From positions 49,109-113,108 of the forward strand of contig JAJPIL010000006.1 of NCBI GenBank assembly GCA_021324755.1: a stretch of DNA of 64,000 nucleotides. The letters run 5' to 3'. Made by a program: the position numbers and the translations under genes. The notes beneath the pieces are model-generated. The model made no database searches and was not told the DNA's origin. It saw nothing but the letters and a program-made list of their open reading frames with translations. Below, piece after piece: positions 799-59,667 of this stretch (the stretch's first letter is position 1; every line of letters begins with the position of its first letter). Source of the stretch: Pseudomonadota bacterium. GTDB lineage: Bacteria; Desulfobacterota; Binatia; Binatales; Binataceae.

Positions 799-928
799 TG
801 CTCTTTGTGGTAAGTCACGGTTCCTGTTGCTATCGTCTGAAAAGCTCTTGCGTTTCCAAGTCCTGCAGCTGTGGACGGTTTGGTTTACGCCAACTCTGCC
901 TGAGGTGTGCGCTTGTCAAAGCGCGGTT

Positions 929-23910: not shown

Positions 23911-25419
23911 CTACCACGTAAGGTCTTTGTAACGTTCCGATAAAACCTTCTTTTGCACTTTATCCATCGCGTTGCGCGGCAGAGAATCCACGAAGAATAC
24001 GCGCTTTGGGACCTTATAGTTTGCTAGTTCGGTCTTCAGTCGCGCGATAATTTCTCGCTCGCTGGGAACGCTTGCTTTGTCTCGCGGCACTACGGCAGCC
24101 ACGACCGCCTCGCCGAAGTCGGGATGCGGCACTCCGAAGACCGCCGATTCTGCCACGCCCTCGATTCGGTCGATAGCCGCCTCGACTTCTTTAGGATACA
24201 CGTTGTAACCGCCGCTGATGATCATATCTTTTGCGCGCCCCACGATTGAGAGGTAGCCATTTGCCCCGAGCTGCCCCACGTCCCCAGTGTCGAAGAAACC
24301 GTCGGCGGTGAAGCCAGCTGCTGTCTTGTCAGGAAGCCTCCAGTAGCCCGGAAATACGTTTTCGCCTTTGACCTGAACATTGCCTGGCGTACCTTGAGCA
24401 ACCGTGTGCCCTTGTTCGTCGACGACTCGCACGCTGACGCCGGGTAGTGGAAGCCCTACGGTACCGGGTATCCGCGGACCATCGACGGGATTCGAACTGA
24501 TAATTCCCGTTTCGGTCATGCCGTACCGCTCGAGGATTTCGTGCCCAGCGCGCTCCTTGAATTTTTCAAAAGTATCTACCAGGAGCGGAGCCGAGCCCGA
24601 GATAAAAACGCGCATGTTGCGGCAAACCTCCCGCGTAAACTTTGGCTCGGCCAGAAGGCGCGTGTAATAGGTAGGCACACCCATAAAGACCGTCGAGCGG
24701 GGCAGAAACCGCACCGCTTTTGCAGCGTCAAAACGAGAGAGGAAAAACATCTTGGCGCCGCTTAGCAGTGCGCAGTGATTGGCCACGAAAAGGCCGTGGA
24801 CGTGAAAAATAGGCAGCATATGAAGTAGCACGTCGCTTGCGTCAAAGCGCCAGACTTGCACAAGCGCAAGAGCATTGACCGCCAAGTTGCGATGGGTGAG
24901 CATCACGCCTTTTGGAACCCCTGACGTGCCAGACGTGTAAAGGATGGCAGCCAGATCTTCCGCTTTGCGCTCAACTGACTCGAAGCGTGGCGGTACATTC
25001 TTAAGCGCGTCGCTCAAGGAGCCTTCGCCGCGTTCGTCGAGCGTTTCCACCTTGGCGCCGGGCGCAAGCTCGCGCATCATCGCAAGCACCTGAGGGCGAC
25101 AGATGATCGCCCGCGGCTGGGCGTCGCCGATAAAATGGGCAAGCTCGCTTCTCTGGTATGCGGTGTTGAGCGGCAGATACACCAGTCCCGCCCGCAGGCA
25201 TCCGAGATAAACGCACAATGCCATGGGCGACTTCTCAACCGAGCACGCCACACGGTCGCCCGCTTCTAGGCCAAGACCGATTAAATAACGTGCAATACGC
25301 GCACTCTCTTTTTCCAGGTCAGCGTAGGTCAGCTGCTGACCGTCTTCCGTTTCCAGCGCCACTCGTTGGGCATTGCGTGAAAAGCGGTCAGCCAGTATCG
25401 CGTACAAGTTTTCGCTCAT
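23911..25419 (-). CDS. matB: Malonyl-CoA synthetase-like AMP-dependent acyl-CoA ligase
   Basis: 502 aa ANL superfamily; YTSGTSGVPKGV AMP-binding motif; N-terminal YLPLNTAY segment characteristic of MatB; divergent from malonyl-CoA decarboxylase. Confidence 0.7.
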   Translation of the reverse strand: MSENLYAILADRFSRNAQRVALETEDGQQLTYADLEKESARIARYLIGLGLEAGDRVACSVEKSPMALCVYLGCLRAGLVYLPLNTAYQRSELAHFIGDAQPRAIICRPQVLAMMRELAPGAKVETLDERGEGSLSDALKNVPPRFESVERKAEDLAAILYTSGTSGVPKGVMLTHRNLAVNALALVQVWRFDASDVLLHMLPIFHVHGLFVANHCALLSGAKMFFLSRFDAAKAVRFLPRSTVFMGVPTYYTRLLAEPKFTREVCRNMRVFISGSAPLLVDTFEKFKERAGHEILERYGMTETGIISSNPVDGPRIPGTVGLPLPGVSVRVVDEQGHTVAQGTPGNVQVKGENVFPGYWRLPDKTAAGFTADGFFDTGDVGQLGANGYLSIVGRAKDMIISGGYNVYPKEVEAAIDRIEGVAESAVFGVPHPDFGEAVVAAVVPRDKASVPSEREIIARLKTELANYKVPKRVFFVDSLPRNAMDKVQKKVLSERYKDLTW

Positions 25420-25781
25420 AATTCGTCCTCTTCCACGGAGCGCACCGATCGCCGCAGCCAGCTAAAGCGCGCTCTCTAAGCCACATATCTTTGACAGCTT
25501 CCCCGTGCCCGACGAGCCAAGCCCGCCGTTGGCTACCTTATGTTGTTAACCATAGCCGGAAACTGTGAATCAAATAAGCACAGAGGGCGACGCGATCGTG
25601 TATGATGGCAGGTATCAAGAGCCGCGGTGAGTTCGTTCGTCCACGGCTACGATGGAGAGATTCGGCTGCCGCTTTAGCGGTCGTTTTAGCACAAACTCTA
25701 CATATGGTCTTTGGCGGGGCCAAACTTTCTGATTCGGTCGCTTGGTAAAACGGGCTCGATAGGCTTTATCGCGCAAGCCGT

Positions 25782-27200
25782 TTGATGAGCACAGAGAAAG
25801 CCGGGGCGCAGAGAGCGCCAGTTTTTAGAAACGCACTGGATGTCTGCAAGGACGATGGTCTGAAGGCTCGACCTGTCCGCGCACAAGAGCTCTGCTGCGC
25901 GCTTTTGTCGGGACGAGGCGAGGCTTCAGGAGAAGCGCTGGCGTGCGAACTTATCAGGGTTTACCAAACGATGAAGCCCGCGCAACGAGTTGCGTTTTTC
26001 GAAATGTTGGCGCGAGATTTTGCCCCAGACCCTAGAAGAGTCAGTCAAGCGGCCAAGGATTATTTCGAAAAGCCCTGTCACGAAACCTTCTTTAAGCTTT
26101 GGAGCACAGTCGAGCCACCACGCCAGGAGTTGTTCAGGAGAATTAACGTGGCCCCAGGCGGCACGCAGGCGCTGATTGATCTGCGCGCTGATCTGATTAA
26201 CCTTCTGTCGCAACGACCTCACCTAGCTGAGGTGGACTTCGACCTAAAGCATTTGTTCGCCTCATGGTTCAATCGCGGGTTTCTTCGGCTGGAGCGGATC
26301 GACTGGCGGACTCCAGCGGAAATCTTAGAAAAGCTTATCCGTTATGAGGCGGTGCACGAAATTAACGGCTGGACAGACCTAAGACGCCGGCTTGCCGAAG
26401 ACCGACGATGTTTCGCGTTTTTCCATCCTGCTCTTCCTGGCGAACCGCTCATCTTCGTCGAAGTTGCGCTTACTCGCGGCGTGGCTCGGACCCTGCAGCC
26501 GCTGCTCGATCCCGAAGCGCCGATTTTGCCTTCCGAGCAGGCGGACACAGCGATTTTCTACTCCATAAGCAACTGCCTTGCTGGCCTGCGCGGTATTTCG
26601 TTCGGCAGTTTTCTGATAAAGCAGGTGATGGCTGAACTTAAGGCTGAACTACGCGGCGTTCGACATTATCTTACACTTTCGCCCCTGCCTGGGTTTGCCG
26701 CAGCTTTAAGGGAACGGGCCGATCCGCACGGCTTTACCCATCGACGCCTGCTTCGGCTGCTCAGTGACTACGCTTCGCAGATTAGGCATCGCACCGGGAT
26801 GCGGAACGTGGTGGAAGGATTCGATCGCTTGCTGGCAGACCCCTTGGCTAACAAACGCGTTTTGGCTGCGCCACTTGCGCGTTTAGCGCTTGCCTATTTG
26901 ACGCAGGTCAAACGCGATGGGCAGATAGCTGATCCGGTCGCCTCCTTCCATCTGGCCAATGGCGCCCGACTGGAGCGAATTAACCCGTTTGCGAACACAA
27001 AGCTTTATGGTTTGCAGAGTTCGTTCGGCTTGATGGTAAACTACCGGTACGTTTCGTCGGAACTGGAGCAAAATCATGAAGCCTTCGTAACCGAAGGCGT
27101 TATCGCGCTCTCTCCATGGCTCGAGCGCGAGTACCGTAAAATAGCCATGATGTGGGGCGGCGACGAAAATCTTAGCTCGCTAGCGAGGGTAAAGCTATGA
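25782..27200 (+). CDS. matA: Malonyl-CoA decarboxylase
   Basis: 472 aa; MCD N-terminal helical domain and C-terminal GNAT-like catalytic region (FYSISNCLAGLRGISFGSFLIKQV). Confidence 0.8.
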   Translation: MMSTEKAGAQRAPVFRNALDVCKDDGLKARPVRAQELCCALLSGRGEASGEALACELIRVYQTMKPAQRVAFFEMLARDFAPDPRRVSQAAKDYFEKPCHETFFKLWSTVEPPRQELFRRINVAPGGTQALIDLRADLINLLSQRPHLAEVDFDLKHLFASWFNRGFLRLERIDWRTPAEILEKLIRYEAVHEINGWTDLRRRLAEDRRCFAFFHPALPGEPLIFVEVALTRGVARTLQPLLDPEAPILPSEQADTAIFYSISNCLAGLRGISFGSFLIKQVMAELKAELRGVRHYLTLSPLPGFAAALRERADPHGFTHRRLLRLLSDYASQIRHRTGMRNVVEGFDRLLADPLANKRVLAAPLARLALAYLTQVKRDGQIADPVASFHLANGARLERINPFANTKLYGLQSSFGLMVNYRYVSSELEQNHEAFVTEGVIALSPWLEREYRKIAMMWGGDENLSSLARVKL

Positions 27201-28345
27201 GTACGATGCCGAATGCGGTGGAGCTCACCCGCAGGCTTGTACAGTTCAACACGGTCAATCCCCCGGGCAATGAGCGGGAGTGTGCGCGCTATCTTGGTGG
27301 ACTGCTCGAATCTGTGGGATTTTCCGTACGGTACTATGAGTTCGCCGAGGCGCGCACCACGCTCGTGGCCACTTGCATGGGCTCGGGAAGCAAAAAACCG
27401 CTTTGCTTTACCGGACATCTCGATGTCGTGCCGCTTGGGCAGCGTCCCTGGAGCGTCGACCCGTTTGCGGCGGAGGTCAGCGAGGGCAAGCTTTTCGGGC
27501 GAGGCGCAAGCGACACCAAAAGCGGTGTCGCAGCCTTTGTGGCGGCGGCAGCGGAGATGCAACAAATGCTAGCCAAAGGCCCGGGTGTGGTCCTCGTTAT
27601 TACGGCGGGCGAAGAGACCGGCTCTGCCGGAGCGTTCCAGGTCGCCCGTCTCGGTGCCAATGCTCTAGGTGAGGCTGGCGCGATCGTGGTGGCGGAACCT
27701 ACTGGTAATTACCCTATGGTAGGACATCGCGGGGCGCTATGGCTCAAGCTCTGGACCAGAGGGGTTACGGCCCACGGATCGATGCCACATAAGGGCGTCA
27801 ACGCAATCTACAAAATGAGCAGAATCGTCAATAAGCTCGAGCGCTTTAAGTTCGATATCAGCCCTCATCCGGTGATGGGAGCGTGCACGTTGAACGTAGG
27901 CACAATAAGCGGAGGGCTAAATATTAATTCCGTTCCCGACCACAGCGAAATCGGGATCGACATTCGCACGGTGCCGGGTGCCGACCATGAGCAACTTAAG
28001 AGGTCTTTGCGCGACTATCTAGCACCGGAGCTCGAGGGTATGGAGGCTCTCATCGATTTCAGCAGTGTCTGGACGGATCCAAGCGATCGCTGGGTACAGG
28101 AAGTTTTTGAGATTATGGCCTCCATCTTGAAAAAACCCATCGAGCCAGCTGCGGCGCCGTACTTCACCGATGCTGCGGCGCTTACGCCTGCGTACGGTGG
28201 GGTGCCGACCATAATTCTCGGGCCAGGGGAAATCGAGATGGCCCATCAGACCGACGAATTTTGCTACGTGACGAAGATCGAGCAAGCGGCCGCGGCGTAC
28301 AGGGCTATTATCGAGCGATGGCATTCCACGAGCCATTCGGCATAA
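27197..28345 (+). CDS. M20-family metallopeptidase (ArgE/DapE-like deacylase)
   Basis: HLDVVP, GRGASDTKSG, EETGS motifs; start overlaps matA stop (ATGA). Confidence 0.75.
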   Translation: MSTMPNAVELTRRLVQFNTVNPPGNERECARYLGGLLESVGFSVRYYEFAEARTTLVATCMGSGSKKPLCFTGHLDVVPLGQRPWSVDPFAAEVSEGKLFGRGASDTKSGVAAFVAAAAEMQQMLAKGPGVVLVITAGEETGSAGAFQVARLGANALGEAGAIVVAEPTGNYPMVGHRGALWLKLWTRGVTAHGSMPHKGVNAIYKMSRIVNKLERFKFDISPHPVMGACTLNVGTISGGLNINSVPDHSEIGIDIRTVPGADHEQLKRSLRDYLAPELEGMEALIDFSSVWTDPSDRWVQEVFEIMASILKKPIEPAAAPYFTDAAALTPAYGGVPTIILGPGEIEMAHQTDEFCYVTKIEQAAAAYRAIIERWHSTSHSA

Positions 28346-28557: not shown

Positions 28558-31065
28558 CTAACGAAGCCACAGAATTAGCGAAGCTTCCAGCGGCACGCGG
28601 ACGCTCGGATAAAATGGGATCACACGCGGCGTGTAATGTTCGGCAGGTCTCGTTGTTTTTACGCGCGCCTCGTAGACAAGCGGCCCACTATTTGGGCTTT
28701 GCTTTGCGGTTTGGGTCATAGTTATTCGTTCAGGTTCTTTGTCTGGAAGCGGTTCAGCGTACAATTCGACGCGTAACCAATCCGGGCTAAGCTTACCGGG
28801 GTCGAGATTCACCTTAAAGAGATGGCCGTCGGTCAGTGGTTCGACCCTCAGGTCCCAAAGACGCAAGCTGGGCCAGCCGGAGGCGAGCGCCTTGTACCAT
28901 TGTTCGATCGCGACAGCATCTTCGATCGTACGTTGGCGATAGGCGCGTAGCGCCTCCGTATAGTACTTCTCCACGTACTCTCGCACCATTCGATTGGCCG
29001 AAAAGCGATGGGTGAGCTGAGCCATGCTCGCCCGGATGCGCCGCACCCAATCCTGAGGAATACCTTGGGCGTCGCGTCGATAAAACGTCGGCACCACTTC
29101 GCTTTCTAGAAGATCGTACAACGCTTCCGCCTCAATCATGTCCCAGGAGGGATCGTCGCCGTGTTCGCGTCCGTCGCCGATCGCCCAGCCGACGTCCGGC
29201 GTGTATGCTTCCGCCCACCATCCATCGAGCTCCGACAAATTCAGCCCGCCGTTCACCAAAAGCTTCATGCCGCTGGTGCCGCAAGCCTCCCACGGACGGC
29301 GCGGCGTGTTGATCCACAGGTCCACTCCTTGGACAAGCTCGGCGGCCAACGCCATGTCGTAATCTTCGACGAACACGGCCCGGTCACGTACCTCGGGCCG
29401 GCGCATAAATTCGTTCCATTCGCGTATCATCTCCTTGCCCGCGGCATCCTGCGGATGGGCTTTGCCGGCGATAATAAGCTGAACCGGCCAGCGGCGGCTC
29501 GTCAGCAGGCGCGACAGACGCTCCGGGTCGTGAAGCAACAGATTGGGGCGTTTGTATTCAGTGAATCGGCGAGCGAAGCCCAAAGTAAGGCTGTCGTAGT
29601 CGAGCGGAAGTCTGAAAGCGTCAGGGGCGTCGGCGTTGCGCAGCCGCCGGGTCTTCATCAGCCGGCGGCGAACGGCGTCAACCAATGCTCTCCTAGCTTT
29701 ATTACGAAACGCCCATATGAGGTCGCTCGGGATACAGGCGATTTTTTCCTCAATGGTTTCGACGTCCCCCAGCCACCGATCCTTGCCGCAACTTTGCGTC
29801 CATAGCTCGTCGGCAATCGTGGAATGCCACGACGGTACATGGATCCCGTTCGTTACGTGCCCCACGGGAACCTCGCTGAGCGGCCAGCGTGGAAAAACCG
29901 GCGCGAAGATCCGCCGGCTGACGGCTCGATGGAGCGCACTGACGCCATTGACGGCACCGCATCCCCGAAGCGCGAGGTAAGCCATGTTGAAAGGCTCGCT
30001 GCGGTCGCCAGGGTTGGCTCGGCCGAGCGCTAGCAGTTCGTCCACGCTGATTCGCAGCATCTCGGCGAGAATCTCAAAGCAGGGCGCGAACATGTGGGGC
30101 TCGAAGCGATCGAATCCGGCTGGTACGGGCGTGTGGGTGGTGAAAATGTTTCCCACGCGGGTGCGTCTGAGCGCCACGTGAAACGGCTGGCCGGTTCGCT
30201 CCATAAAATCCCGCGCTCGCTCCAGCACGGCGAAAGCCGCGTGTCCCTCGTTGAGATGGCAAATTTCGCATTCGATACCCAAGCTCCGAAGCACGCGCCA
30301 CCCACCGATTCCAAGCGCTATTTCTTGTTGGAGCCGCATCAACGAACCGCCCCCGTAAAGCTCTGAGGTAATAGCCCGATCGGCTGGCGTATTGAGCGGA
30401 TCGTTGGCGTCGAGAAGAAAGAGCGTTGTCCGCCCGACTTTAACCTGCCAGCAACGCAGATAAAGAGTACGGCCTGGAAGGGTAATTTCCACGCGCAACC
30501 ATTCCCCATCCGGGGTTTGCACCGGCAAAATGGGCAGCATCGCTGGGTTGTTGTAAGGAAAGAACTCGAGTTGCTCGCCACGAGAGCCGATGACCTGGCG
30601 GAAGTACCCTTGCTGATAGAGAAGACCGATACCGTAAACTGGCAGGCCGAGGTCGCTTGCGACCTTGAGAAAGTCCCCGGCCAAGATGCCCAGACCGCCC
30701 GAGTATATCGGTAGAGCTTCGCTGAGCCCGAACTCCATGCAGAAAAAAGCGATGCCGTTGAGCTTAAGCTCGCCATAATTTCGCTCGAACCAGGTAGACT
30801 GGCGAAAATATTGATCGCGCATCTGGTGCAAGCGCTTGATTTCCGCGACGAACGCCGTGTCTTGCGCCAGCGCCTGAAGGCGTTTTTGCGAGACATCCCG
30901 CAAAAGTAGCCAAGGATTTCCAGTCGCCTCCCAAAGCTCGGGATCGAGCTTTTGCCACAAGACGTCCGCCTCGCGGTTCCAGCTCCATCGCATGTCTAGC
31001 GCCATCTCGATGAGAGGTTCGAATTCGGGCGGAAGCTTACGCGGGAGATAGTGATCGTAATTCAC
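28558..31065 (-). CDS. glgP: Alpha-glucan phosphorylase (GT35, bacterial GlgP-type with N-terminal DUF3417-like region)
   Basis: 835 aa; SGGLGILAGDFLKVASDLGLPVYGIGLLY motif and pyridoxal-phosphate Lys region. Confidence 0.85.
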   Translation of the reverse strand: MNYDHYLPRKLPPEFEPLIEMALDMRWSWNREADVLWQKLDPELWEATGNPWLLLRDVSQKRLQALAQDTAFVAEIKRLHQMRDQYFRQSTWFERNYGELKLNGIAFFCMEFGLSEALPIYSGGLGILAGDFLKVASDLGLPVYGIGLLYQQGYFRQVIGSRGEQLEFFPYNNPAMLPILPVQTPDGEWLRVEITLPGRTLYLRCWQVKVGRTTLFLLDANDPLNTPADRAITSELYGGGSLMRLQQEIALGIGGWRVLRSLGIECEICHLNEGHAAFAVLERARDFMERTGQPFHVALRRTRVGNIFTTHTPVPAGFDRFEPHMFAPCFEILAEMLRISVDELLALGRANPGDRSEPFNMAYLALRGCGAVNGVSALHRAVSRRIFAPVFPRWPLSEVPVGHVTNGIHVPSWHSTIADELWTQSCGKDRWLGDVETIEEKIACIPSDLIWAFRNKARRALVDAVRRRLMKTRRLRNADAPDAFRLPLDYDSLTLGFARRFTEYKRPNLLLHDPERLSRLLTSRRWPVQLIIAGKAHPQDAAGKEMIREWNEFMRRPEVRDRAVFVEDYDMALAAELVQGVDLWINTPRRPWEACGTSGMKLLVNGGLNLSELDGWWAEAYTPDVGWAIGDGREHGDDPSWDMIEAEALYDLLESEVVPTFYRRDAQGIPQDWVRRIRASMAQLTHRFSANRMVREYVEKYYTEALRAYRQRTIEDAVAIEQWYKALASGWPSLRLWDLRVEPLTDGHLFKVNLDPGKLSPDWLRVELYAEPLPDKEPERITMTQTAKQSPNSGPLVYEARVKTTRPAEHYTPRVIPFYPSVRVPLEASLILWLR

Positions 31066-31200: not shown

Positions 31201-33357
31201 CTAGCCCGAATGGCCGGGCCTTTCGAGCACGACAAGGGAGCGCGGGACGAGTTCGAACACTTGGCCGTTAAATACTGGCTCTCTGCCCGAGTCTGGGGCG
31301 TCATAAGGCGCGGGCGCCCCGGTATTAATGACTATTCGCCAGGGTTGCGCACCGGCCGGCGGCGGCACCGTAAATTGAACAGAATGTTCTTCTGCGTTGA
31401 ACATTAGGTATAAGTCTCCTCTTGCGGATTCCAGGTCTCTTATGAGGCATGCGAGGGCTCGCTCTGGACCGTTCCATTGGGGGTAATTTCCGTTTGCGTC
31501 AAACCAAGAAACTTCCGCTTCGGTATAAAATCGTTCCCGGCGCAAAACTCCGTGGTCGTTGCGAAAAGCTATCATTTTGCGCACGAAGCGGAACAGCTCG
31601 CGGTTGCGCTCGAGCAGCCTCCAGTCGTACCAGGAGGTCTCGTTGTCCTGGCAGTAAGCGTTATTGTTGCCGCGCTGAGTGCGCCCGAATTCGTCTCCTC
31701 CAAGTATCATGGGCACGCCGCGCGACAACAGCAGCGTGGCGATCATGTTTTTCATCTGGCGCAGGCGGACGGCGTTGATCGAGGGGTCGTCGGTTTCGCC
31801 TTCGACGCCATAGTTGCAACTGAAGTTGACATCGCTACCGTCTCGGTTGCCCTCGCCGTTTGCCTCATTATGTTTTCGTTCGTAGCTGACGAGGTCGCGC
31901 AAAGTAAACCCGTCGTGGCAAGTGATAAAGTTGATGCTGTTCAGCGGCGCTCGGCCAGAGTGTTGATAGATATCGGCGCTGCCGCACAAGCGACTGGCGA
32001 ACAAACCGAGCATTCCGCGGTCGCCTCGCCAGAAACGGCGTACCTCGTCGCGGTAGCGTCCGTTCCATTCGGACCAATGAAGCCCCGGGAAGCATCCTAC
32101 CATGTAAGCGCCGCCAGCATCCCATGCCTCCGCGATCAATTTGACGCCGCGCAGGATGGGATCTTCAGCGATGCGCTCGAGAAGTGGCGCGTTAGGCGTG
32201 ATGTTGCCCGACTCGTCGCGCCCGAGGATCGCGGCAAGGTCGAACCTGAAGCCGTCGACATGCATCTCGGTCACCCAATGGCGTAGACAATCAAGGATAA
32301 GTTCCCGTACGACGGGATGATTGCAATTGAGCGTGTTGCCGCAACCAGAGAAGTTTTTGTAGCGACGCTTGTCGTCCTCGAGCAGGTAGTAGACCGGATT
32401 CTCGATGCCACGGAAGCTGAGCGTGGGCCCGGTTTCGTCGCCTTCCGCAGTGTGATTGAACACGACGTCGAGAATCACTTCGATGTCCGCGGCGTGAAGT
32501 GCGCGCACCATTTCTTTGAACTCGGCGACTTGTTGGCCGCGCCCTCGGCTTGCGTAGGTTTCCTTCGGGGCGAAAAAGCCGAGCGGGTTGTAGCCCCAGT
32601 AATTGCGCAGCCGCGAGCCATCCAATGGGTTTACCCGCTTGATTTCGTTCTCGTTGAACTCATGGACCGGTAATAGCTCGATTGCTGTAATACCGAGCTC
32701 CTTGAAGTAGGGAATTTTCTCGATAAGTCCTCGGTACGTGCCCGGATACCGGACGCCGGATGAAGGATGGATCGTCAACCCCCGAACGTGGGTTTCGTAG
32801 ATTATAGTTCGCGACCAGGGATGGGCTGGTAAACGGTCGTCCTGCCAGTCGAAATCGCGAACTGCCACGATCCCTTTTGCGACATAAGGCGCATTGTCTT
32901 CGGTCGAAAAGGAAAGATCTTTTAGCGGCGAGTCGGGATCGTAGCCGCGGGCGCGATCGAAGTCGTATTCGCTTACGCCGGTCAGGGCGGTTGCGTAAGG
33001 ATCGACAAGCACTTTAAAGCGATTGAAGCGAAGACCATCGCGCGGGCGGTAGGGTCCATCGACTCGATAAGCGTAGCACGAACCTGGACCGATCCCCATC
33101 ACGCGTACGTGCCAAATTTCCCCTGTCCGATTGAAAACAGGATCGAGCTTTATTGTTAGGGAAGGATACGGATCGTCTGGGGAATCGTACAAAAGCAGCT
33201 CGACCGAGGTCGCGTGGCGGCTAAAAAGCGCAAAGTTAACGCCGCCTGGAACGACCCATGCTCCGAGCGGCAGGGGACTTCCGCTCTTGATTGTGAGGCT
33301 TTTCTGAGAGACAGCGCTGGTAGGTGAAGATTCGGTGTCGGGATGGCTTTCGCTCAC
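31201..33357 (-). CDS. glgX: Glycogen debranching enzyme GlgX (isoamylase, GH13)
   Basis: 718 aa; CBM48 N-domain (GVNFALFSRHATSVELLLYD), GH13 catalytic motifs (GFRFDLA, AEAWD). Confidence 0.85.
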   Translation of the reverse strand: MSESHPDTESSPTSAVSQKSLTIKSGSPLPLGAWVVPGGVNFALFSRHATSVELLLYDSPDDPYPSLTIKLDPVFNRTGEIWHVRVMGIGPGSCYAYRVDGPYRPRDGLRFNRFKVLVDPYATALTGVSEYDFDRARGYDPDSPLKDLSFSTEDNAPYVAKGIVAVRDFDWQDDRLPAHPWSRTIIYETHVRGLTIHPSSGVRYPGTYRGLIEKIPYFKELGITAIELLPVHEFNENEIKRVNPLDGSRLRNYWGYNPLGFFAPKETYASRGRGQQVAEFKEMVRALHAADIEVILDVVFNHTAEGDETGPTLSFRGIENPVYYLLEDDKRRYKNFSGCGNTLNCNHPVVRELILDCLRHWVTEMHVDGFRFDLAAILGRDESGNITPNAPLLERIAEDPILRGVKLIAEAWDAGGAYMVGCFPGLHWSEWNGRYRDEVRRFWRGDRGMLGLFASRLCGSADIYQHSGRAPLNSINFITCHDGFTLRDLVSYERKHNEANGEGNRDGSDVNFSCNYGVEGETDDPSINAVRLRQMKNMIATLLLSRGVPMILGGDEFGRTQRGNNNAYCQDNETSWYDWRLLERNRELFRFVRKMIAFRNDHGVLRRERFYTEAEVSWFDANGNYPQWNGPERALACLIRDLESARGDLYLMFNAEEHSVQFTVPPPAGAQPWRIVINTGAPAPYDAPDSGREPVFNGQVFELVPRSLVVLERPGHSG

Positions 33358-33376: not shown

Positions 33377-34585
33377 TCAGCGAGCTACCAGACGCGCTGC
33401 AGCTTGCGCCATATATAGCTCTTCGTCCAAGGTAACAACGTAAGCTTTTATCGGTGAATCTGGTCGGCTAATCATCGCCTCGCGGCCGTTGGCAGAGCGA
33501 TTTGCCTGTGCGTCAAGAATTAAACCAAGTGTCTCAAGGCCACTGCAAATTTTTGCCCGTACCTCGTCGGCGTGCTCGCCGATTCCCCCGCCGAAGACGA
33601 CGGCATCGACACGCCCCAGTACGGCCATCTAGGCACCAAGGTACTTGCGAGCACGATAAGCGAACGCCTCGATCGCCTGCGCCGCGGCTCCCAACGGGTC
33701 GCGGCTCGCCGCCGCAAGAACCTCGCGTATGTCGTCTGAAACGTTCGACAGTCCCAGAAGGCCCGACTCGTGATTCAACATTCGGTCAATCTCTTGCACT
33801 GTCATTCCCTCGCTGGCCAGATACAGGAGAAGACCGGGATCGACGTCACCTGCCCGGGTTCCCATCATCAGCCCTTCGAGCGGCGTAAGTCCCATCGAGG
33901 TGTCCACCGAGCGGCCTGCCGCTATCGCCGTGACCGAGCATCCACCACCGAGCTGCATCGTGATAAGGTTAAGCTCCTCCTTAGGCTTTTTCATCAGCGT
34001 GGCGGTTCGTTCGAGCATGTAAGCGTGGCCGATACCGTGAAAGCCGAAGCGGCGGATCCCATACTTCTCGGACACTCGGCGCGGGATGGCATAAAGACGC
34101 GCATGGATGGGAATCGTATGATGAAATGCTGTATCTGGCACCACTACTGGAATTGCGTTTGGAAGCTCTTGTCGAACCGCCTCCAACGTTGCAAGCGCGG
34201 CCGGATTGTGCAGAGGCGCAAACTTGCTCGCCTCTCGCAGGGCGCGGATCGTGTCGTCGTCTGCTAAAGTAGCGTCTTTAATTTTCTCGCCGCCGTGAAC
34301 AACCCGATGTGCTACGACATCGACGTCAACCCTTCTCAGAACCGAGCGGAGCCATTGTAGCGCGTCCAACGCCGCGCCTTGATGGTCGGTTATAGAAAGC
34401 TTTTGTCTCAGTTCTTGGCCGCCTGCTGTTTTCAAAACGCGCTGACACTGGGGGTGGCCGAGGTCTTCGTAATGTCCCAGCGCGATAGTTGTTCGCTCAA
34501 AGTCGACCTGACGACTCAGCTCCAGAAGCTCAAACTTTAACGAAGAGCTGCCGCAGTTAAAGACAAGGGTTTTTAGCGGGCGCAT
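33377..34585 (-). pseudogene. ackA: Acetate kinase interrupted by an in-frame TAG (amber) codon at 33629-33631
   Basis: N-terminal part (MRPLKTLVFNCGSSSLKFELL ... ARKYLGA) ends at TAG. The next codon is ATG and continues in the same frame (MAVLGRVDAVVFGGGIGE...), which is the C-terminus of acetate kinase. The stop replaces the conserved Tyr of the KYIGAY motif. The ORF track shows a long spurious N-terminal extension, and the real start is the ATG at about 34585. Confidence 0.7.
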
Positions 34586-34593
34586 CGTTCTGC

Positions 34594-37326
34594 TTACAAG
34601 TCTAGGGGGACTTCCAGCAGTGGCGGCTTGAGTCGCATTCTTCCGTCGATAACTATCGCTCCTTTTCCGGAGGGCAACACCTTGACTGGGTTTAAATCCA
34701 TCTCGGTCATCTCCGGGACAACGTCTATCAAAGCCGAGACGCGCTGAATAACAGCAACCAGGGCTTGCCTGTCGGCCGCGGGAGTTCCTCGGTAACCGTC
34801 GAGCAGTGGTGCGCTGCGCAAATGGGTTATCATCTCGGCGGCGTCGATGTCGCTTACCGGGTGAAGCCGGAATGAGACATCTTTCAGCAGTTCGACGAAC
34901 ACGCCGCCCAGGCCACATACTACCAGGGGGCCAAAGGTCGGATCTGTCGTTACGCCTACCAGCGCCTCGATTCCCTGGTCGATCTGTCGTTGTAGAAGCA
35001 CGCCAGTCAGCGGTTTGCCAATCGCAGCCATGCGCTCTTGCAGTGTTTTGACCGCTTGTGCAACGTCTTGCTCGCAGACAAGACCCATTATGACGCCACC
35101 GACGTCGCTTTTATGCACCAACCCGGGTGCGATCGCCTTGGCCACCAGAGGATACCCCAAGCGTCTGGCAACTTCAGGCGCTTCCTCGGGCAAAGTTTGC
35201 TCCGCTTCGACGCATGCGATACCGGCGGCACGCAAAATGGTAGCAAGGTCTCGCGCTTCAACCCAAACCGGCTCGCTTGCGTCTTTCAAGACTCGTTCGA
35301 CTACAGCGCGCACAACCTCGCGCGCAAAGCGCGAAAGGCTCATGATTTGACCCCTGGGGCGCTTACGCCAGCAAGCGTACCGCCATGCGCTAGCCAGCGC
35401 CAAGGCGGCGCCTTCGGGAAAGTTGTAAACTGGCAGACGTCCCCGAGGACCGCTGCTCAGTGCTTCGGGTGCTCCTGCGGTGGAAAGGAATACCGTGATC
35501 ACCGGTTTCTCAGAGGGTACCTTGCCGGCACCGGCAGCTATTCCGACCGCGATCTGCTCCGGATTGGTTACCATCGGGGGTACGTACAGCACTACCAGGG
35601 CATCGACCTCCGGGTCGTTACCAACTAACGCGATGGCTCGCTCGTAGTCCTCGGCGGAGGCCGAGGCTGTCATGTCGATCGGATTGGCAAGTCCAGAGCG
35701 GGGCGGCAAAAAGGCGCGCAAAGCCTCAAGCGTCGGCTCGGATAGCGTGGGAAGCACAAGCCCGTGGGCTTCACAAGCGTCGGCAAGCAAAATCCCTGGA
35801 CCACCCGCGTTAGTAACGACTCCGATTTTTGGCCCCGGCGGTATCGGCTGCGAGGAAAGCATCGAAACCGCGTCGAAGAGCCCCTCGAGCGTGTCGGTGC
35901 GAATCACTCCGGCCTGCTCGAACAACGCGTCCACTGCGACGTCGAGGTTGGCCAGTGCGGCCGAATGGCTTGATGCGGCTCGACTGCCAGCAGCCGACCG
36001 TCCCGACTTCACCGCGACCACAGGCTTTCGACGCGCAACTTCGGGCGCAAGCCGCGCAAATTTGCGGGGGTTACCTACGCTTTCCAGGTAAAGCGCGACC
36101 ACCGACGTTTGCGGATCATCCATCCAATACGCCAGCAAATCGTTGTTGGATAAGTCGGCGCGATTGCCAGCCGAGATGAAAGTCGAAAAGCCGAGCTGAT
36201 GGGCCCGCGCATAGTCCAAAATAGCTATGCCCAGCGCTCCGCTCTGGGTGAACATCCCGATATTTCCTGGTAATGGTTGCACGGGGGCAAAGGTCGCGTT
36301 GAGGCGAATTTCTTGATCGGTGTTGATGATGCCCATGCAATTGGGACCCACCAGGCGCATGCCGCTTGCCCTTGCCAAACTGGCGATTCGGCGCTCAGCT
36401 TCGGCACCCTCAGCCGAGACTTCGGCGAAGCCTGCGGTCAACACGACGACTCCCTTGACGCCCACTTTGCCGCACTCGACGATTACGCGCTCTACCGCTT
36501 CCGCAGGAACGGCAATCAGGGCTAGATCAACTTCGCCCGGAACCTCACCAATGGAGCGGTAGCATTTGAGACCTTGGATCTCTTGGGCATTGGGATTGAT
36601 CGGATAGATCGGTCCGCGAAAGCCGTGGCGGACAAGGTTCGCAACTAACGCGCCGCCGATTTTACTCTCGTTGCGTGAAGCTCCTATAACCGCAACTGAC
36701 TTCGGGCGCAGAAGCCGCGCGACGCTTCGCGCGGCAGCGATGCGCTCGCGCGTCTCGACCGCCTCGATCGATTGCGGAGTCTCGCTGGTTGAAATCCACA
36801 AATGGATAACGCCGGACCGGCTGGAACGCCGTACCTTGAAGCCGCTTTTGGCGAACACTTCAAGCATACGGTTGTTCTCGCCTAGAACGTCGGCTTCAAA
36901 TTCGCTAATCCCGTTGGCCCGAGCGATTCGCGCAAGATGGGTGAGCAGCAGAGTGCCGATTCCCCGGCCTTGATACTCGTCGAGCACAGCGAAGGCAACT
37001 TCGGCACGCTTGGGGTCGCCTCCTCGAATGTAACGCCCGACGCCAATGAATTCCTCGCGGTCGCCTTTTTTCAAGGTTGCTACGAGGCCGACGTGGTTTA
37101 CGAAGTCGAGATTTGTAAAACGGGTCAACTCCTCTTCGGTCAGCTCCTTCTTGGGCCCGAGGAAGCGGTAGTAGATCGACTGGGGGCTAAGCCGTTTGAA
37201 ATGCTCGTAAAGTTTGGCTTTGTCTTCTGGCTGAATCGCGCGGATGTGGATCGAGCTTCCGTCGCGCAAAAGCTCTTCCACCGCGTAGGCGCGCAAATCG
37301 GCCGCTGACGTTAGCTGCTCTGTCAC
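34594..37326 (-). CDS. GNAT acetyltransferase fused to ADP-forming acetyl-CoA synthetase (NDP-forming acyl-CoA synthetase alpha+beta); Pat-like protein lysine acetyltransferase architecture with N-terminal GNAT
   Basis: 910 aa; N-terminal GNAT (QGRGIGTLLL), then CoA-binding/succinyl-CoA-synthetase-alpha-like domain (VAVIGASRN...GPNCMGI), then ATP-grasp (PLVAKAIAPGLVHKSDVGGV). Confidence 0.75.
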   Translation of the reverse strand: MTEQLTSAADLRAYAVEELLRDGSSIHIRAIQPEDKAKLYEHFKRLSPQSIYYRFLGPKKELTEEELTRFTNLDFVNHVGLVATLKKGDREEFIGVGRYIRGGDPKRAEVAFAVLDEYQGRGIGTLLLTHLARIARANGISEFEADVLGENNRMLEVFAKSGFKVRRSSRSGVIHLWISTSETPQSIEAVETRERIAAARSVARLLRPKSVAVIGASRNESKIGGALVANLVRHGFRGPIYPINPNAQEIQGLKCYRSIGEVPGEVDLALIAVPAEAVERVIVECGKVGVKGVVVLTAGFAEVSAEGAEAERRIASLARASGMRLVGPNCMGIINTDQEIRLNATFAPVQPLPGNIGMFTQSGALGIAILDYARAHQLGFSTFISAGNRADLSNNDLLAYWMDDPQTSVVALYLESVGNPRKFARLAPEVARRKPVVAVKSGRSAAGSRAASSHSAALANLDVAVDALFEQAGVIRTDTLEGLFDAVSMLSSQPIPPGPKIGVVTNAGGPGILLADACEAHGLVLPTLSEPTLEALRAFLPPRSGLANPIDMTASASAEDYERAIALVGNDPEVDALVVLYVPPMVTNPEQIAVGIAAGAGKVPSEKPVITVFLSTAGAPEALSSGPRGRLPVYNFPEGAALALASAWRYACWRKRPRGQIMSLSRFAREVVRAVVERVLKDASEPVWVEARDLATILRAAGIACVEAEQTLPEEAPEVARRLGYPLVAKAIAPGLVHKSDVGGVIMGLVCEQDVAQAVKTLQERMAAIGKPLTGVLLQRQIDQGIEALVGVTTDPTFGPLVVCGLGGVFVELLKDVSFRLHPVSDIDAAEMITHLRSAPLLDGYRGTPAADRQALVAVIQRVSALIDVVPEMTEMDLNPVKVLPSGKGAIVIDGRMRLKPPLLEVPLDL

Positions 37327-37757
37327 CTCTATGCTACTCCGCTGCTACCAGAGGTCTTTTCCCCAGTTAGCTCGGCGAAACGTTGTGCTAACCGATTATA
37401 CCATTTTGCTATTGCGTGATAGTGTAAAAAACTTCGCAAGTTAGGGAATGCGAACTGAGTAGTGTGAACTGCCGTGATTCAAAAGAACGTCGTTTTTTGC
37501 GCGCCATGAATGCAATGTAAATGCGATGCGGACCCTGAGCGTTGAGCGATGGCGACGCGGTGCCAGTGCAGCGGTATTCGGTGGGAAACAAAGAAAGAGG
37601 AAGTGGCGTGTCGATCGTCGTCACACAAAGCCGAGCTTTGCCCGTGATGTCGCCATCGCCTGGGTTATTGCGGTCCGCGCTTCCAACTCGAAACTGCTGA
37701 AAGCAGACGTCCGAGACGTCGAACGCGTGAAGCCTGCGAGCACGGGCCGGAATTGCT

Positions 37758-38933
37758 TCATATTCCTAGCGCCTTGAGCCCGGGCAATTCGCGCCCTTCG
37801 AGAAATTCGAGTGTGGCTCCGCCTCCGGTTGAAATGTGCGAGAATTTGTGCGCCCACGGCTGGTTTTTGACGGCCGCGGCCGTGTCACCGCCTCCCAGGA
37901 CGCTGAAAACGCCAGGATTGTTAGCCAAGGCTTCACCGAATCTGAGCGTGCCTTGTGCAAAAGCGGGAATCTCGAAAAAGCCCAGTGGACCGTTCCAAAC
38001 TACGGTCTTAACGCCTTTGATTCGTTGGACGAACTTCTCGACCGACCGCGGCCCGATGTCGAGCGCCATCTTGTCGGCCGGAATAATCGCTACCGTCTCG
38101 ACCCCGGCGTCGGCGCTGGGTTGGTAGGCTACTACGTGGTCTTCGGGCAGGACGAACTCTACGTGATGGCGTCGAGCTTCGTTCATAAGCTCTCGCGCCA
38201 AATCGAGCTTGTCGATCTCCACACGCGACTTTCCAACCTCGACTCCCTGCGCTCGCAAAAACGTGTAAGCCATCGCGCCGCCAACCAGCAAAGCATCAAC
38301 CCTGCTCATCAGGTTTCGGATCACGCCTATCTTGTCGGACACTTTGGCGCCGCCCAACACCGCGACGTACGGCCGTGCGGGATTGTCAAGCAACGCACGT
38401 AGCGCCTCTACCTCGCGCATCATCAGCAGGCCCGGCGCCCGTTCAGGCAGAAACTCGGTAACGCCCACGGTAGACGCGTGCGCGCGATGGGCCGTGCCAA
38501 AAGCGTCGTTGACGTAGATTTGTTTGCCAGCGGCTAGGGCGCGAGAAAATTCCCGGTCGTTAGCTTCTTCCCCGGGATGGAAGCGAAGATTTTCGAGCAG
38601 AAGCGTCTGGCCTGGCTCGAGCTCCGCGGTCATCCGCTCGACCTCGGGACCGACACAGTCCGGAGCGAATTTCACTTCCGAGCCAAGCGCTCGTGCGAGG
38701 TATTCGGCGACCGGCGCCAGGCTAAGTTCGGGGGCGTGCCGACCTTTCGGCCGCCCCAGATGCGAGCAGGCAACCACGGCCCCAGACTGAGAGAGAATAT
38801 AGCGTATTGTGTCGAGGCTTGCGTCGATTCGGCTGGTGTCCGATATTCGACCATCGTTCAGTGGAACGTTGAAGTCAACCCGTAACAGAACCTTTTTATT
38901 CCTCAAATCCAAATCTTGAAGTCGCGTAGCCAT
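37758..38933 (-). CDS. pgk: Phosphoglycerate kinase
   Basis: LDLRNKKVLLRVDFNVP N-terminus and conserved PGK motifs throughout; ATG at 38933 with GGGAGA upstream (ORF track start 38957 is a TTG). Confidence 0.9.
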   Translation of the reverse strand: MATRLQDLDLRNKKVLLRVDFNVPLNDGRISDTSRIDASLDTIRYILSQSGAVVACSHLGRPKGRHAPELSLAPVAEYLARALGSEVKFAPDCVGPEVERMTAELEPGQTLLLENLRFHPGEEANDREFSRALAAGKQIYVNDAFGTAHRAHASTVGVTEFLPERAPGLLMMREVEALRALLDNPARPYVAVLGGAKVSDKIGVIRNLMSRVDALLVGGAMAYTFLRAQGVEVGKSRVEIDKLDLARELMNEARRHHVEFVLPEDHVVAYQPSADAGVETVAIIPADKMALDIGPRSVEKFVQRIKGVKTVVWNGPLGFFEIPAFAQGTLRFGEALANNPGVFSVLGGGDTAAAVKNQPWAHKFSHISTGGGATLEFLEGRELPGLKALGI

Positions 38934-39151
38934 CCTCCAAATTTCTCCCGCTAGCAAAGTTCCGAAAAGCTAACGACCAAGGTCTTTTGGAAATTTTATT
39001 TGTCGCGCTCAAGCTTCGGCAGAATTCAAGCGTCGAAGTGGTAATGGCAAATCTTCGAAACCTGGACCGTAGTTGTTTTTAACACATAAAAGGCTTACAT
39101 CCTTTTTCAGTTCTGCACGACTTTCTGCGAGCCTCCAGCCGAACAATACCG

Positions 39152-39595
39152 TCAAGCGGCGGATTTGCTGGTGATCGTTTCGGGTCGGACTGTGAGGACG
39201 GGACAGGGTGCTTCTCGAATCACGCGCTCCGCCACACTGCCTAAAAAGAAATGAGCGAGACCCGAACGGCCGTGCGTCGACATGACAATTAGATCTGGCA
39301 TCAGGTTCTTTGCGGTATCCAGTATTCCCTGAGCAGGATCTCCCACGCATACGATCAGTTCGCGCTTAAACCCTTGTGCAAGTCGTTGAGCAATGGCCTC
39401 GAGCCGGGTTCTCGCTTCTTGCTCAGCGGCTTTGTATGGTTCGAGCGCCCACTCCATAGGAGCCAGTACTACGGGCACCACGTGAAGCAAAATAAGTGTT
39501 CCGCTCTCTTTTGCAACCAGTTTTTCCGCCAGCTTAAGCGCGGCTACGGAACCTTCCTCAAAGGCTACCGGACAAAGAATTTTGTTCCACTCCAT
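39152..39595 (-). CDS. Universal stress protein (UspA family)
   Basis: About 148 aa from internal ATG; ATP-binding motif region MSTHGRSGLAHFFLGSVAERV. Confidence 0.8.
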   Translation of the reverse strand: MEWNKILCPVAFEEGSVAALKLAEKLVAKESGTLILLHVVPVVLAPMEWALEPYKAAEQEARTRLEAIAQRLAQGFKRELIVCVGDPAQGILDTAKNLMPDLIVMSTHGRSGLAHFFLGSVAERVIREAPCPVLTVRPETITSKSAA

Positions 39596-39939
39596 CGACT
39601 GTTCCCCGTCGGCTCGATGATACTTCCGCGCCGGAAAAGAAAGCGTTGTTTTGGCGCCGCTGAGTAAGTTATTGTCTCTTGCTAGAGGTAGCAGTGGCAA
39701 CATTTTGAGGTTAGATTCGGCATCCAATAAGGTCGTTCAGGACCGCGGCTAGACGTGGCCGACGCGATTGCGCGCCGCTTTTCTCGCGCCCCGAGCAGCG
39801 AAAGCTTTCCAGTTATACGGCGTGGTTTGTCAGAAATCAGGCCAAGCGCGGCTTGCTTTGCCCAAGAATTCGAGTTTCTGACGAGAAACTTTGAATCGCT
39901 CAAGAAAGAGTAGCGACGAATCGCAGGGTCTTTTCGTTG

Positions 39940-57528: not shown

Positions 57529-57585
57529 CCGGACGCGCATCGGTAATTTTTCGCAATCGCTGGCTTTGCGAGCGAGGAGCGTACG

Positions 57586-59667
57586 ATGAGGCTTCACACA
57601 GTGGAAGGGCAAAAGAATATCGACCTGCTCTGTATCAATACCATCCGCACCCTTGCGATGGACGCCGTGCAGGCGGCCAACTCGGGCCATCCAGGAACGC
57701 CGATGGCGCTTGCGCCTGTGGCGTATTACTTGTGGCAGTACGTAATGCGCTACGACCCTGACGCTCCGACGTGGCTTAACCGCGACCGCTTTGTGTTATC
57801 GAATGGGCATGCCTCGATGCTTCTGTACGCGATCCTGCATCTGGCGGGCGTCAAGGCGGTAAATCCCGATTACGAGCAAGTAGGACGGCTTGCGGTCACG
57901 CTTGACGATATCAAACGGTTTCGCCAGTTGGACAGCAAATGCCCGGGTCATCCCGAGTACCGTTGGACCTCCGGCGTCGAAACGACCACCGGGCCGCTGG
58001 GACAAGGTGTGGCGACCAGCGTGGGCATGGCGATCGCCCAGCGTTGGCTCGCAAGCCGCTTTAATCGGCCGGGTTTCGAGCTGTTCGACTACAGGGTTTA
58101 CGCGATCTGCGGCGACGGGTGCATGATGGAGGGAATCTCGGGCGAAGCAGCTTCGCTTGCCGGCCATCTTAGACTGTCGAATCTGTGCTGGATTTACGAC
58201 AACAATCACATCACCATCGAAGGCAACACAGCGCTTGCGTTCAGCGAGGACGTCGCGACACGGTTTGTCGGTTATGGATGGAACGTTACGCGGGTGGGCG
58301 ATGCCAATGACCTCGAGATGCTGGGACGAGCGCTTGAAATAGCCCATCGCAGCGAAGACCGTCCGACTTTGATTATTGTCGACAGTCATATCGCCTATGG
58401 CGCGCCGCACAAGCAGGACACCAGTGCAGCGCACGGCGAACCGCTCGGCGAAGAGGAAATCCGACAGACCAAGCGGAACTATGGATGGCCCGAAGATGCG
58501 AAGTTTCTCGTGCCCGAGGGCGTCAGGGAGCATTTCGCTGCCGGTGTTGGCGCGCGCGGGCGCGCGCTCAGAACTGGATGGGAAGCGACTTTGAGGCGCT
58601 ACCGAGAGGCTTATCCCGATCTGGCGCGAGAACTCGAGTTGATGCAACGGGGCGAGCTGCCCGAAAGATGGGACAGTGAATTGTCTTACTTCGCGCTCGA
58701 ACCCAAGGGTATCGCCGGTCGCGACGCCTCGGGCAAGGTGCTCAACGCCATCGCTCAGCGCGTTCCATGGCTTTTGGGCGGCTCGGCTGACCTTGCGCCG
58801 TCTACCAAGACGCGGCTTACATTTCCTGGTGCGGGAGACTTCGAAGCCGACACGCCGCAGGGGCGGAACTTCCACTTCGGTATCCGCGAACACGCTATGG
58901 CTGCCATCCTTAACGGGCTTGCGCTGTCCAAATTGAGGCCGTACGGTTCGACGTTCTTGGTATTTAGCGATTACTTGCGTCCGGCCTTGCGGCTGTCCGC
59001 TTTGATGGAGTTGCCGGTCATCTATGTCTTCACCCATGATTCGATAAGCGTGGGCGAAGACGGACCGACACATCAGCCGGTGGAGCACCTCGCGGCGCTG
59101 CGTTCCGTGCCTGGTTTGGTGGTGCTGCGGCCGGCGGACGCTAATGAAGTTGTCGAAGCGTGGCGCTTGGTCATGCAGCTAAAGGACAAACCAGCGGTGC
59201 TCGTCCTTTCGCGTCAAGCTCTGCCGGTTATCGACCGCACAAAATATGCGCCTGCCTCGGGTACTTCGAGGGGTGCGTACGTGCTGGCTGATGCTCCTGG
59301 CGGTAAGCCCGAAGTCTTACTGCTCGCAACGGGAAGCGAGGTCCATCTATGCTTGGAGGCGTACGAAAGCCTCAAGCAGGAAGGCATCGCCGCGCGGGTC
59401 GTAAGCATGCCGTCGTGGGAAATCTTCGAGCATCAGTCGAAAGAATACCGCGACAGTGTGCTTCCGCCAGATGTCGTTCTGCGTGTGGCGGTCGAAGAGG
59501 GCTCAACTTTCGGATGGTCGCGATACGTGGGACCGCGCGGCCGTTGCATCGGTATGGAAACCTTTGGAGTGCCAGCTCCGATGAAAGAAGTGCAAAAGAA
59601 ATTCGGGTTTACGGTCGAACGTATAGTGGGCGTTGTTAAAGAGCTTCTGGCCGACCATAAAGGCTAG
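57586..59667 (+). CDS. tkt: Transketolase
   Basis: 693 aa; TPP-binding motifs (GHPG, GDGCMMEGISGEA), transketolase pyrimidine-binding and C-terminal domains. Confidence 0.9.
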   Translation: MRLHTVEGQKNIDLLCINTIRTLAMDAVQAANSGHPGTPMALAPVAYYLWQYVMRYDPDAPTWLNRDRFVLSNGHASMLLYAILHLAGVKAVNPDYEQVGRLAVTLDDIKRFRQLDSKCPGHPEYRWTSGVETTTGPLGQGVATSVGMAIAQRWLASRFNRPGFELFDYRVYAICGDGCMMEGISGEAASLAGHLRLSNLCWIYDNNHITIEGNTALAFSEDVATRFVGYGWNVTRVGDANDLEMLGRALEIAHRSEDRPTLIIVDSHIAYGAPHKQDTSAAHGEPLGEEEIRQTKRNYGWPEDAKFLVPEGVREHFAAGVGARGRALRTGWEATLRRYREAYPDLARELELMQRGELPERWDSELSYFALEPKGIAGRDASGKVLNAIAQRVPWLLGGSADLAPSTKTRLTFPGAGDFEADTPQGRNFHFGIREHAMAAILNGLALSKLRPYGSTFLVFSDYLRPALRLSALMELPVIYVFTHDSISVGEDGPTHQPVEHLAALRSVPGLVVLRPADANEVVEAWRLVMQLKDKPAVLVLSRQALPVIDRTKYAPASGTSRGAYVLADAPGGKPEVLLLATGSEVHLCLEAYESLKQEGIAARVVSMPSWEIFEHQSKEYRDSVLPPDVVLRVAVEEGSTFGWSRYVGPRGRCIGMETFGVPAPMKEVQKKFGFTVERIVGVVKELLADHKG

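Follow-up and report, generated by a model that had tools for sequence, protein, structure and literature searches.

Lysine acetylation of the Pat type is understood from three model proteins, in which the large domain related to ADP-forming acetyl-CoA synthetases (ACD) is a dead sensor, and the locus analyzed here raises the question of whether this description holds for a protein in which that domain looks complete. The window, a stretch of 64,000 nucleotides of contig JAJPIL010000006.1 (positions 49,109 to 113,108 of the forward strand; assembly GCA_021324755.1 of a Pseudomonadota bacterium placed in the Binataceae in the GTDB lineage), encodes on its reverse strand a 910-aa fusion protein, hereinafter GNAT-ACD, in which a GNAT acetyltransferase domain is followed by the domains of an ACD; next to it lies an acetate kinase gene, ackA. 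An earlier note on this DNA posed the question of whether the ACD part is catalytically dead as in enterobacterial Pat. There is no sign of such a loss in the sequence, in which all the pertinent motifs are retained, and the reading toward which we lean, with modest confidence, is that GNAT-ACD is a type II Pat-like protein both halves of which are working enzymes.

The GNAT-ACD coding sequence (34594..37326, reverse strand, as are all features of this gene given below) starts with GTG and ends with TAA. It is called from the list of open reading frames (ORFs) and from Pfam, and the same call is made on Logan contig L001, an independent assembly in which the gene is identical. A candidate second allele (P0361) was not counted as independent because P0001 maps to the very same Logan contig. 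Pfam places GNAT (aa 27-164), CoA_binding (208-335), Succ_CoA_lig (353-490), Ligase_CoA_2 (503-611) and ATP-grasp_5 (688-899) in this order, which bears out the earlier description of a GNAT domain followed by the CoA-binding and ATP-grasp domains of an ACD. The Streptomyces PatA-like arrangement that had been proposed also stands: GNAT first and the ACD-like module second is the domain order of type II GNAT acetyltransferases (class I-alpha; PMC6456759, PMC8556138), the group of Streptomyces lividans PatA (SlPatA), which is the best structural relative of the GNAT domain. With at least 8000 database proteins of 63-74% identity to GNAT-ACD sharing its eight-Pfam architecture, the fusion is real and common rather than a product of misassembly.

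The case for a working ACD half is made by its motifs. All five ACD subdomains are present in the order 1-2-5-3/4, the same as in the Nitrosopumilus maritimus enzyme Nmar_0206 (PDB 8wzu), and the alignment with residues 6-696 of that structure runs from end to end. Subdomains 1-2, the CoA-binding Rossmann fold and the flavodoxin-like domain (aa 204-490, 35857..36717; Pfam and alignment with 8wzu, 9y43 and 2csu), contain the motifs GPN329C330, QS362G363 (QSGA) and GN388 and, in the loop AASSHSAAL, the predicted swinging-loop phosphohistidine H454 (codon 35965..35967), which aligns with H256 of Nmar_0206. Subdomain 5, the CoA-ligase domain (aa ~503-650, 35377..35820; Pfam Ligase_CoA_2 and mapping on Nmar_1309), carries N506-A-G-G-P and N-P-x-D551. 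In the ATP-grasp domain, which comprises subdomains 3/4 (aa 688-899, 34630..35265; ATP-grasp_5 E 2.7e-59, with matches to 1wr2, 8wzu and 4xyl_B), the second histidine, H738 (codon 35113..35115, in LVHKSDVGGV), aligns with H535 of Nmar_0206 and with the beta-subunit histidine of ckcACD1. H256 and H535 are the catalytic histidines of Nmar_0206 (PMC11494057). The active site of Nmar_1309, a 3-hydroxypropionyl-CoA synthetase, consists of N376, S411-G412-T413, N555/A557/G558 and D602 (bioRxiv 10.1101/2025.09.22.677778), and the corresponding site-I residues are all found in GNAT-ACD: N329/C330 for N376, S362/G363 for S411-T413, N506-P510 for N555-G558 and D551 (in NPID) for D602. Loss of both histidines, which together with an intact pta elsewhere the earlier note would have taken as a mark of a purely regulatory Pat, is not what is seen.

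Similarity searches and modelling agree with the motifs. For residues 205-897, the best relative among solved structures is 8wzu, the N. maritimus 4-hydroxybutyryl-CoA synthetase (E 3.5e-139, 469 bits), followed by 9y43, 2csu and Candidatus Korarchaeum ACD1; PatZ of Escherichia coli (9it0) scores 346 bits. The NCBIfam model TIGR02717 (AcCoA-syn-alpha) likewise gives 513.7 bits for GNAT-ACD and 378.9 for PatZ, so that the ACD module is nearer to proven enzymes than it is to PatZ on the first measure, and nearer than PatZ on the second. The AlphaFold model (mean pLDDT 77.6, pTM 0.75), in which the confidence of the loop 444-459 is low, as would suit a mobile element, superimposes on 8wzu with a TMt of 0.89 and on ckcACD1 alpha with a TMt of 0.87; PatZ is among its best whole-chain fold matches. 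These features mark the C-terminal ~700 aa as a complete ADP-forming acyl-CoA synthetase in a single chain. Like the single-chain and two-subunit ADP-forming acyl-CoA synthetases of N. maritimus (Nmar_0206, 8wzu), Ca. Korarchaeum (ACD1, 4xyl/4xym) and Pyrococcus horikoshii (2csu/1wr2), GNAT-ACD has the two catalytic histidines and the full set of site-I motifs; unlike them, it has a GNAT domain and scores below the NCBIfam equivalog cut-offs.

The GNAT half also looks competent. The Pat-type GNAT domain (aa ~15-185, 36772..37284) was delineated from its best PDB matches and a fold match to 4u5y (TMt 0.84). All nine PDB entries that match the domain best are protein lysine acetyltransferases, with the GNAT domain of SlPatA (4nxy) first at E 9e-33; PatZ, Rv0998 and MsPat are also matched. 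In the fold alignment, the modelled domain is ~38-41% identical to that of SlPatA (TMt 0.78-0.84). The two GNAT domains are homologous, and E109 (codon 37000..37002, checked in the DNA), the predicted catalytic base, aligns with E123 of SlPatA and E809 of PatZ, the glutamates to which this role is attributed (PMC12184503). The acetyl-CoA P-loop, Q119-G-R-G-I-G124 by alignment (36955-36972), follows the pattern Q/R-x-x-G-x-G/A, so that both the Pat-type catalytic Glu and the P-loop are present. Absence of the catalytic residues of the GNAT domain would, according to the earlier note, have argued for a plain ACD. Given that both ACD histidines are present along with the GNAT Glu and P-loop, the sequence favors neither a protein that is only a regulatory Pat nor one that is a plain ACD.

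The conservation of these residues was surveyed in one genome per species, with at least 600 matches and 80 loci kept (42-64% identity), from Acidobacteriota, Binatia, Dehalococcoidia and other Chloroflexota, Acidimicrobiia and other Actinomycetota, Dormibacterota and further groups. In the resulting 81-sequence alignment, GPNC, QSG, GN and NxGG are each present in 81 of 81 sequences, H454 in 77, H738 in 75, E109 in 74 and the P-loop in ~79. All four sequences that lack H454 also lack H738. In a Chloroflexota subclade (L042:2037-4790, L049:385-3120, L057:7974-10697), E109, H454 and H738 are all replaced by Gln while GPNC, QSG, NxGGP and NPxD are kept, so that these proteins are apparently double pseudoenzymes; in L010:7986-10748, both histidines are lost and the Glu is kept. 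The depth of histidine retention together with the linked loss suggests selection on a working phosphoryl relay, beyond the needs of ligand binding.

The same counts bear on the possibility that GNAT-ACD is essentially a plain ACD that interconverts acetyl-CoA with acetate and ATP, its GNAT domain being an accessory that acetylates GNAT-ACD itself or has lost its protein substrates. The intact ACD motifs, the position of the gene within a glycogen/glycolysis/acetate operon and the annotation of many members by JGI as acetate-CoA ligase (ADP-forming) would be in line with this. We nevertheless consider it improbable because the catalytic Glu and the P-loop of the GNAT domain are conserved across phyla at the frequencies given above, the nearest matches of the domain are bona fide protein acetyltransferases, and the fusion is maintained in thousands of proteins.

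If both halves work, the ACD half would interconvert acetyl-CoA + ADP + Pi and acetate + ATP + CoA via phospho-His454, and the GNAT half would acetylate target proteins with acetyl-CoA. If Pat enzymes are a guide, these targets would most likely include an AMP-forming acyl-CoA synthetase, in which case one polypeptide would harvest ATP from acetyl-CoA and silence the ATP-costly reverse route, so that a futile cycle is avoided.

Several points weigh against this bifunctional reading. The TIGR02717 score of 513.7 is below the trusted cut-off of 567.15 for the acetate-CoA ligase alpha subunit, which also counts in favor of a regulatory protein, and for NF045493 GNAT-ACD scores 525 against a cut-off of 1300. 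The sequence does not single out one acyl substrate, and enzymes for 4-hydroxybutyrate, 3-hydroxypropionate and feruloyl substrates belong to the ACD superfamily as well (PMC6388921). The conserved residues could serve ligand sensing or regulatory autophosphorylation instead of turnover. Both the avoidance of a futile cycle and the choice of acetylation target are what we infer rather than observe. Genomic context gives little general support because the neighbors of the fusion across phyla are heterogeneous: CBS domain proteins in 6 of 71 cases and Usp in 4 of 71 and 3 of 73, then enoyl-CoA hydratase (ECH), BON and PNPOx, with no single conserved or dominant partner among the neighbors in the surveyed phyla. 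Finally, we know of no GNAT-ACD fusion for which ACD activity has been demonstrated.

A recurrence of stress- or dormancy-type neighbors was observed in the same survey (flanks of L006-L085; L091:2142-5951): Usp, pairs of CBS domains, BON, PNPOx/F420-type proteins and a cation P-type ATPase.

These points bring up the main rival of the bifunctional reading, namely, that GNAT-ACD is a conventional regulatory Pat, to which we give a smaller though still substantial share of credence. Under this alternative, the protein would be a lysine acetyltransferase only, with an ACD-like module that binds acetyl-CoA and perhaps ATP, activates the GNAT domain allosterically and drives oligomerization, as in PatZ, the histidines serving for ligand binding or as a phospho-switch. 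All experimental precedent is of this kind. It is the mode of every studied type I and type II enzyme, and in the characterized relatives SePat, EcPatZ and SlPatA, which thus also speak against two active halves, the ACD-like domain is a module for regulation and oligomerization that binds acetyl-CoA (PMC8556138, PMC12184503); the regulatory domain of PatZ binds acetyl-CoA allosterically, with no reported synthetase activity, and PatZ too keeps the ATP-grasp histidine (H531) and binds ATP without a known function (PMC12184503).

What tips the balance toward two active halves is the comparison of GNAT-ACD with these same model proteins. E. coli PatZ (YfiQ/Pka) and Salmonella Pat (type I) are built of the same two modules in the opposite order; the ACD-like part of PatZ is homologous to that of GNAT-ACD over the full length (30% identity, 2e-81), and the catalytic Glu of its GNAT domain is conserved. 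However, PatZ has GPNS, QSAA and NGAAP in place of the motifs described above, and a four-residue deletion removes its swinging-loop histidine. The proxy used for SlPatA was a frameshifted genomic copy from Streptomyces ambofaciens with a GNAT domain 97% identical to that of SlPatA, given that the search with the SlPatA GNAT domain yielded only fragments shorter than 290 aa. This PatA ortholog differs from GNAT-ACD in having GPNA for GPNC, GNSESLG for TNAGGPG and a divergent loop, APQGHAVRA, and is only 36% identical to it in the ACD part. It also has a long Pro/Ala-rich insertion that in the alignment is seen only in the Streptomyces ortholog and is absent from GNAT-ACD, in which the Pro-rich/collagen-like G-P-S segment that SlPatA requires for activity was not found either. 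Thus, PatZ and the Streptomyces ortholog have both lost the loop-histidine context, the Cys of GPNC and the (N)AGGP phosphate-binding turn, whereas GNAT-ACD and ~93% of its family retain them, at 93-100%. Moreover, the joint loss of the loop and ATP-grasp histidines would be expected of a phosphoryl relay but not of two separate binding sites.

In the S. ambofaciens assembly (GCA_053628835.1, L088:5001-8101), gene calling divides the PatA ortholog into two genes that overlap, for a 240-aa GNAT protein and a 793-aa ACD-like protein; the split looks like a frameshift at ~5720, due to either a sequencing error or a real separation.

According to a review, the ACD domains of type II enzymes are catalytically inactive and lack the catalytic histidine (PMC8556138). 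In GNAT-ACD, H454 resides in a canonical AASSH(S/T)(A/G)AL loop and H738 is present, and the retention of the histidines across the family contradicts this general statement, at least as far as can be judged from sequences. By architecture, GNAT-ACD is therefore of a known kind, a type II GNAT, yet it does not appear to share the dead ACD attributed to that kind: it matches active ACDs in all the motifs compared, with scores below the equivalog cut-off. Apparently, everything that an ATP-forming acetyl-CoA synthetase needs for catalysis is kept here and in most of the ~80 sampled genomes from many phyla. An active ACD would amount to a direct enzymatic link among substrate-level ATP formation, acetate overflow and protein acetylation, and metabolic reconstructions from metagenomes that name such genes ‘ACD’ or ‘GNAT’ would each be half right. 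The broader proposition, that most GNAT-first Pat-like proteins of Acidobacteriota, Binatia, Chloroflexota, Actinomycetota and other groups are bifunctional, with a phospho-His454/His738 relay making or consuming acetyl-CoA beside the GNAT domain, appears rather doubtful. If it were true, acetylation would be driven or gated directly by acetate, ATP/ADP and Pi as opposed to the bulk acetyl-CoA pool, and the textbook statement of a dead ACD in types I and II would be limited to the enterobacterial and Streptomyces models.

A further question is what role, if any, belongs to ackA, which the earlier note took to be the partner of GNAT-ACD in place of the usual pta. The spacing that was reported, about 8 nt, is accurate: the TAA of GNAT-ACD lies at 34596-34594 and the ATG of ackA at 34585, leaving a gap of 8 nt. 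The adjacency thus stands, but a single open ackA frame and a pairing that extends across the family do not. The frame, on the reverse strand, comprises 318 N-terminal codons (33632..34585; Acetate_kinase profile positions 2-314, E 8e-99; TIGR00016, 320 bits), an in-frame TAG (33629..33631) directly followed by ATG (TAGATG), and 83 C-terminal codons in the same frame with a TGA stop (33377..33628; profile positions 316-392), which include the motif GGIGEH. Since the profile match ends at 314 before the TAG and resumes at 316 after it, exactly one codon is replaced. At this position (codon 319), otherwise occupied by a conserved Tyr or Phe codon, five related loci and E. coli have Tyr (TAC/TAT) and one related locus has Phe; in all six related loci examined, ackA is intact and encodes 401-410 aa.

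The TAG was read in the DNA of one assembly, and the independent Logan contig L001/L094 ends short of the site. Nevertheless, an assembly error is unlikely because the truncated 318-aa AckA is recorded by NCBI, JGI, Logan and ENA, on four contigs, and no intact 100%-identical AckA was found among the database search results. Reassignment of the stop codon was considered and rejected: TAG is the commonest stop in the window, ending 18 of 50 ORFs. The 83-codon tail is 63-66% identical to its relatives, compared with 56-61% for the N-terminal part; because the tail is as well conserved as the rest and an ATG follows the TAG, the lesion is recent, or else the tail may be re-initiated. Accordingly, ackA could be a recent pseudogene or a split, re-initiated gene. 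The 318-aa fragment alone should be inactive, by analogy with the Methanosarcina enzyme, given that the GGIGE motif of the tail is one which we take to be needed for catalysis. An intact acetate kinase gene, as in AckA-Pta operons, is not what this genome has.

In the absence of a nearby pta, the ACD half could be thought of as a surrogate for Pta, one that makes acetyl-phosphate from acetyl-CoA and Pi, the first ACD half-reaction, and passes it on to AckA. The immediate proximity of the ackA start, the conservation of the arrangement in a narrow clade and the lack of pta at the locus would fit. E. coli Pta has no tblastn match in the window or in any of the fetched loci of relatives, and no PTA_PTB domain was detected by Pfam among the 48 window ORFs scanned, so that ‘in place of pta’ holds for this range. 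Nevertheless, we consider this idea very improbable. The two histidines that consume the acyl-phosphate on the enzyme are both intact; ackA is interrupted by a nonsense codon next to an intact GNAT-ACD; in 78 of the 80 other genomes, the fusion does not have an ackA within 8 kb; and the variants without histidines, which might release acyl-phosphate, are not located beside ackA. In the two loci that do have ackA within 8 kb, the gene is in neither case co-directional and downstream, and one of the two is next to a phosphoketolase gene.

With two active halves, there would be no need for such a partnership: given that both histidines are intact, the ACD half would carry acetyl-CoA to acetate and ATP without AckA, and an obligate ACD-AckA pathway is disfavored by the nonsense codon that ackA carries next to an intact GNAT-ACD. 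For these two reasons, and with a precedent in Entamoeba histolytica, in which ACD and acetate kinase coexist without PTA or XFP (PMC9983610), we read AckA as a parallel outlet that would convert acetyl-phosphate to acetate, the acetyl-phosphate coming from elsewhere in the genome. The likeness to E. histolytica consists in the combination of ACD and acetate kinase with no identified partner producing acetyl-phosphate, which in the present case applies to the 64 kb of the window. Unlike this locus, however, E. histolytica is a eukaryote, its acetate kinase is PPi-dependent, the genes are unlinked and there is no GNAT domain, whereas here ackA is interrupted.

GNAT-ACD is the apparent head of an operon that continues with ackA, glgX and then glgP. 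The gene order usp-pgk-[GNAT-ACD]-ackA-glgX-glgP is on one strand, the reverse. A glgX-type glycogen debranching enzyme (31201..33357; CBM_48, Alpha-amylase, ISOA1-3_C) starts 19 nt past the ackA stop and is found in the same place in relatives; it is followed by a glgP-like alpha-glucan phosphorylase (28558..31065; DUF3417 and Phosphorylase in Pfam), syntenic in L002, L095, L096 and L097. Upstream of GNAT-ACD are the co-directional pgk for phosphoglycerate kinase (37758..38957; PGK E 3.6e-150), separated from it by a 431-nt spacer, and usp for a universal stress protein (39152..39727; Pfam Usp), both syntenic in relatives. Together with glgB, an amylase-family gene, a GH57 enzyme and glgA, which are also located upstream, these genes confirm the placement of the pair inside a glycogen cluster. 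Such an operon beside usp and pgk might serve the breakdown of glycogen to acetate, with a gain of substrate-level ATP under stress.

The order GNAT-ACD, ackA, glgX is kept in five related lineages, mostly with gaps of 13 nt; in three of these, GNAT-ACD is 74%, 73% and 67% identical to the protein analyzed here, and two more were found through AckA, at 58% and 62%. In four of the five, usp, pgk and glgP are kept as well. A relative with 66% identity lacks this arrangement. The pairing with ackA is thus a conserved operon of one narrow clade and not a trait of the family: the GNAT-ACD family is widespread and uncharacterized, and the pairing is local to one clade and broken in this genome.

The search for regulatory signals yielded little: Rfam detected nothing in the window, and the scan of the window for promoters and terminators gave results at or below chance. 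A perfect extended -10-like element, TGGTATAAT, lies in the 431-nt spacer at 37395-37403 on the reverse strand, 68 nt upstream of the GTG of GNAT-ACD; it is not conserved in the upstream regions of the five relatives examined. The 48 window ORFs scanned include no phosphoketolase, AMP-forming Acs or sirtuin.

Genes for a MatB-like AMP-binding acyl-CoA synthetase, a malonyl-CoA decarboxylase and an M20 peptidase adjoin the glycogen genes (23911-28345) and are syntenic in relatives. The AMP-binding protein (23911-25419), encoded 9 kb from GNAT-ACD, is a candidate acetylation substrate; its C-terminal motif is PRNAMDK and not the usual acetylation motif P-x4-G-K. At the edge of the window, on the reverse strand (70-3081), there are LutABC-like lactate utilization genes (a CCG domain protein and an LUD + 4Fe-4S protein), and a lipid A acyltransferase gene at 8809-9897 suggests that the organism is a diderm. 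On the forward strand, at 54661-63297, a 955-aa transaldolase-phosphoglucose isomerase fusion (tal-pgi) is followed by tkt, zwf (G6PD), opcA and pgl in a compact pentose-phosphate cluster.

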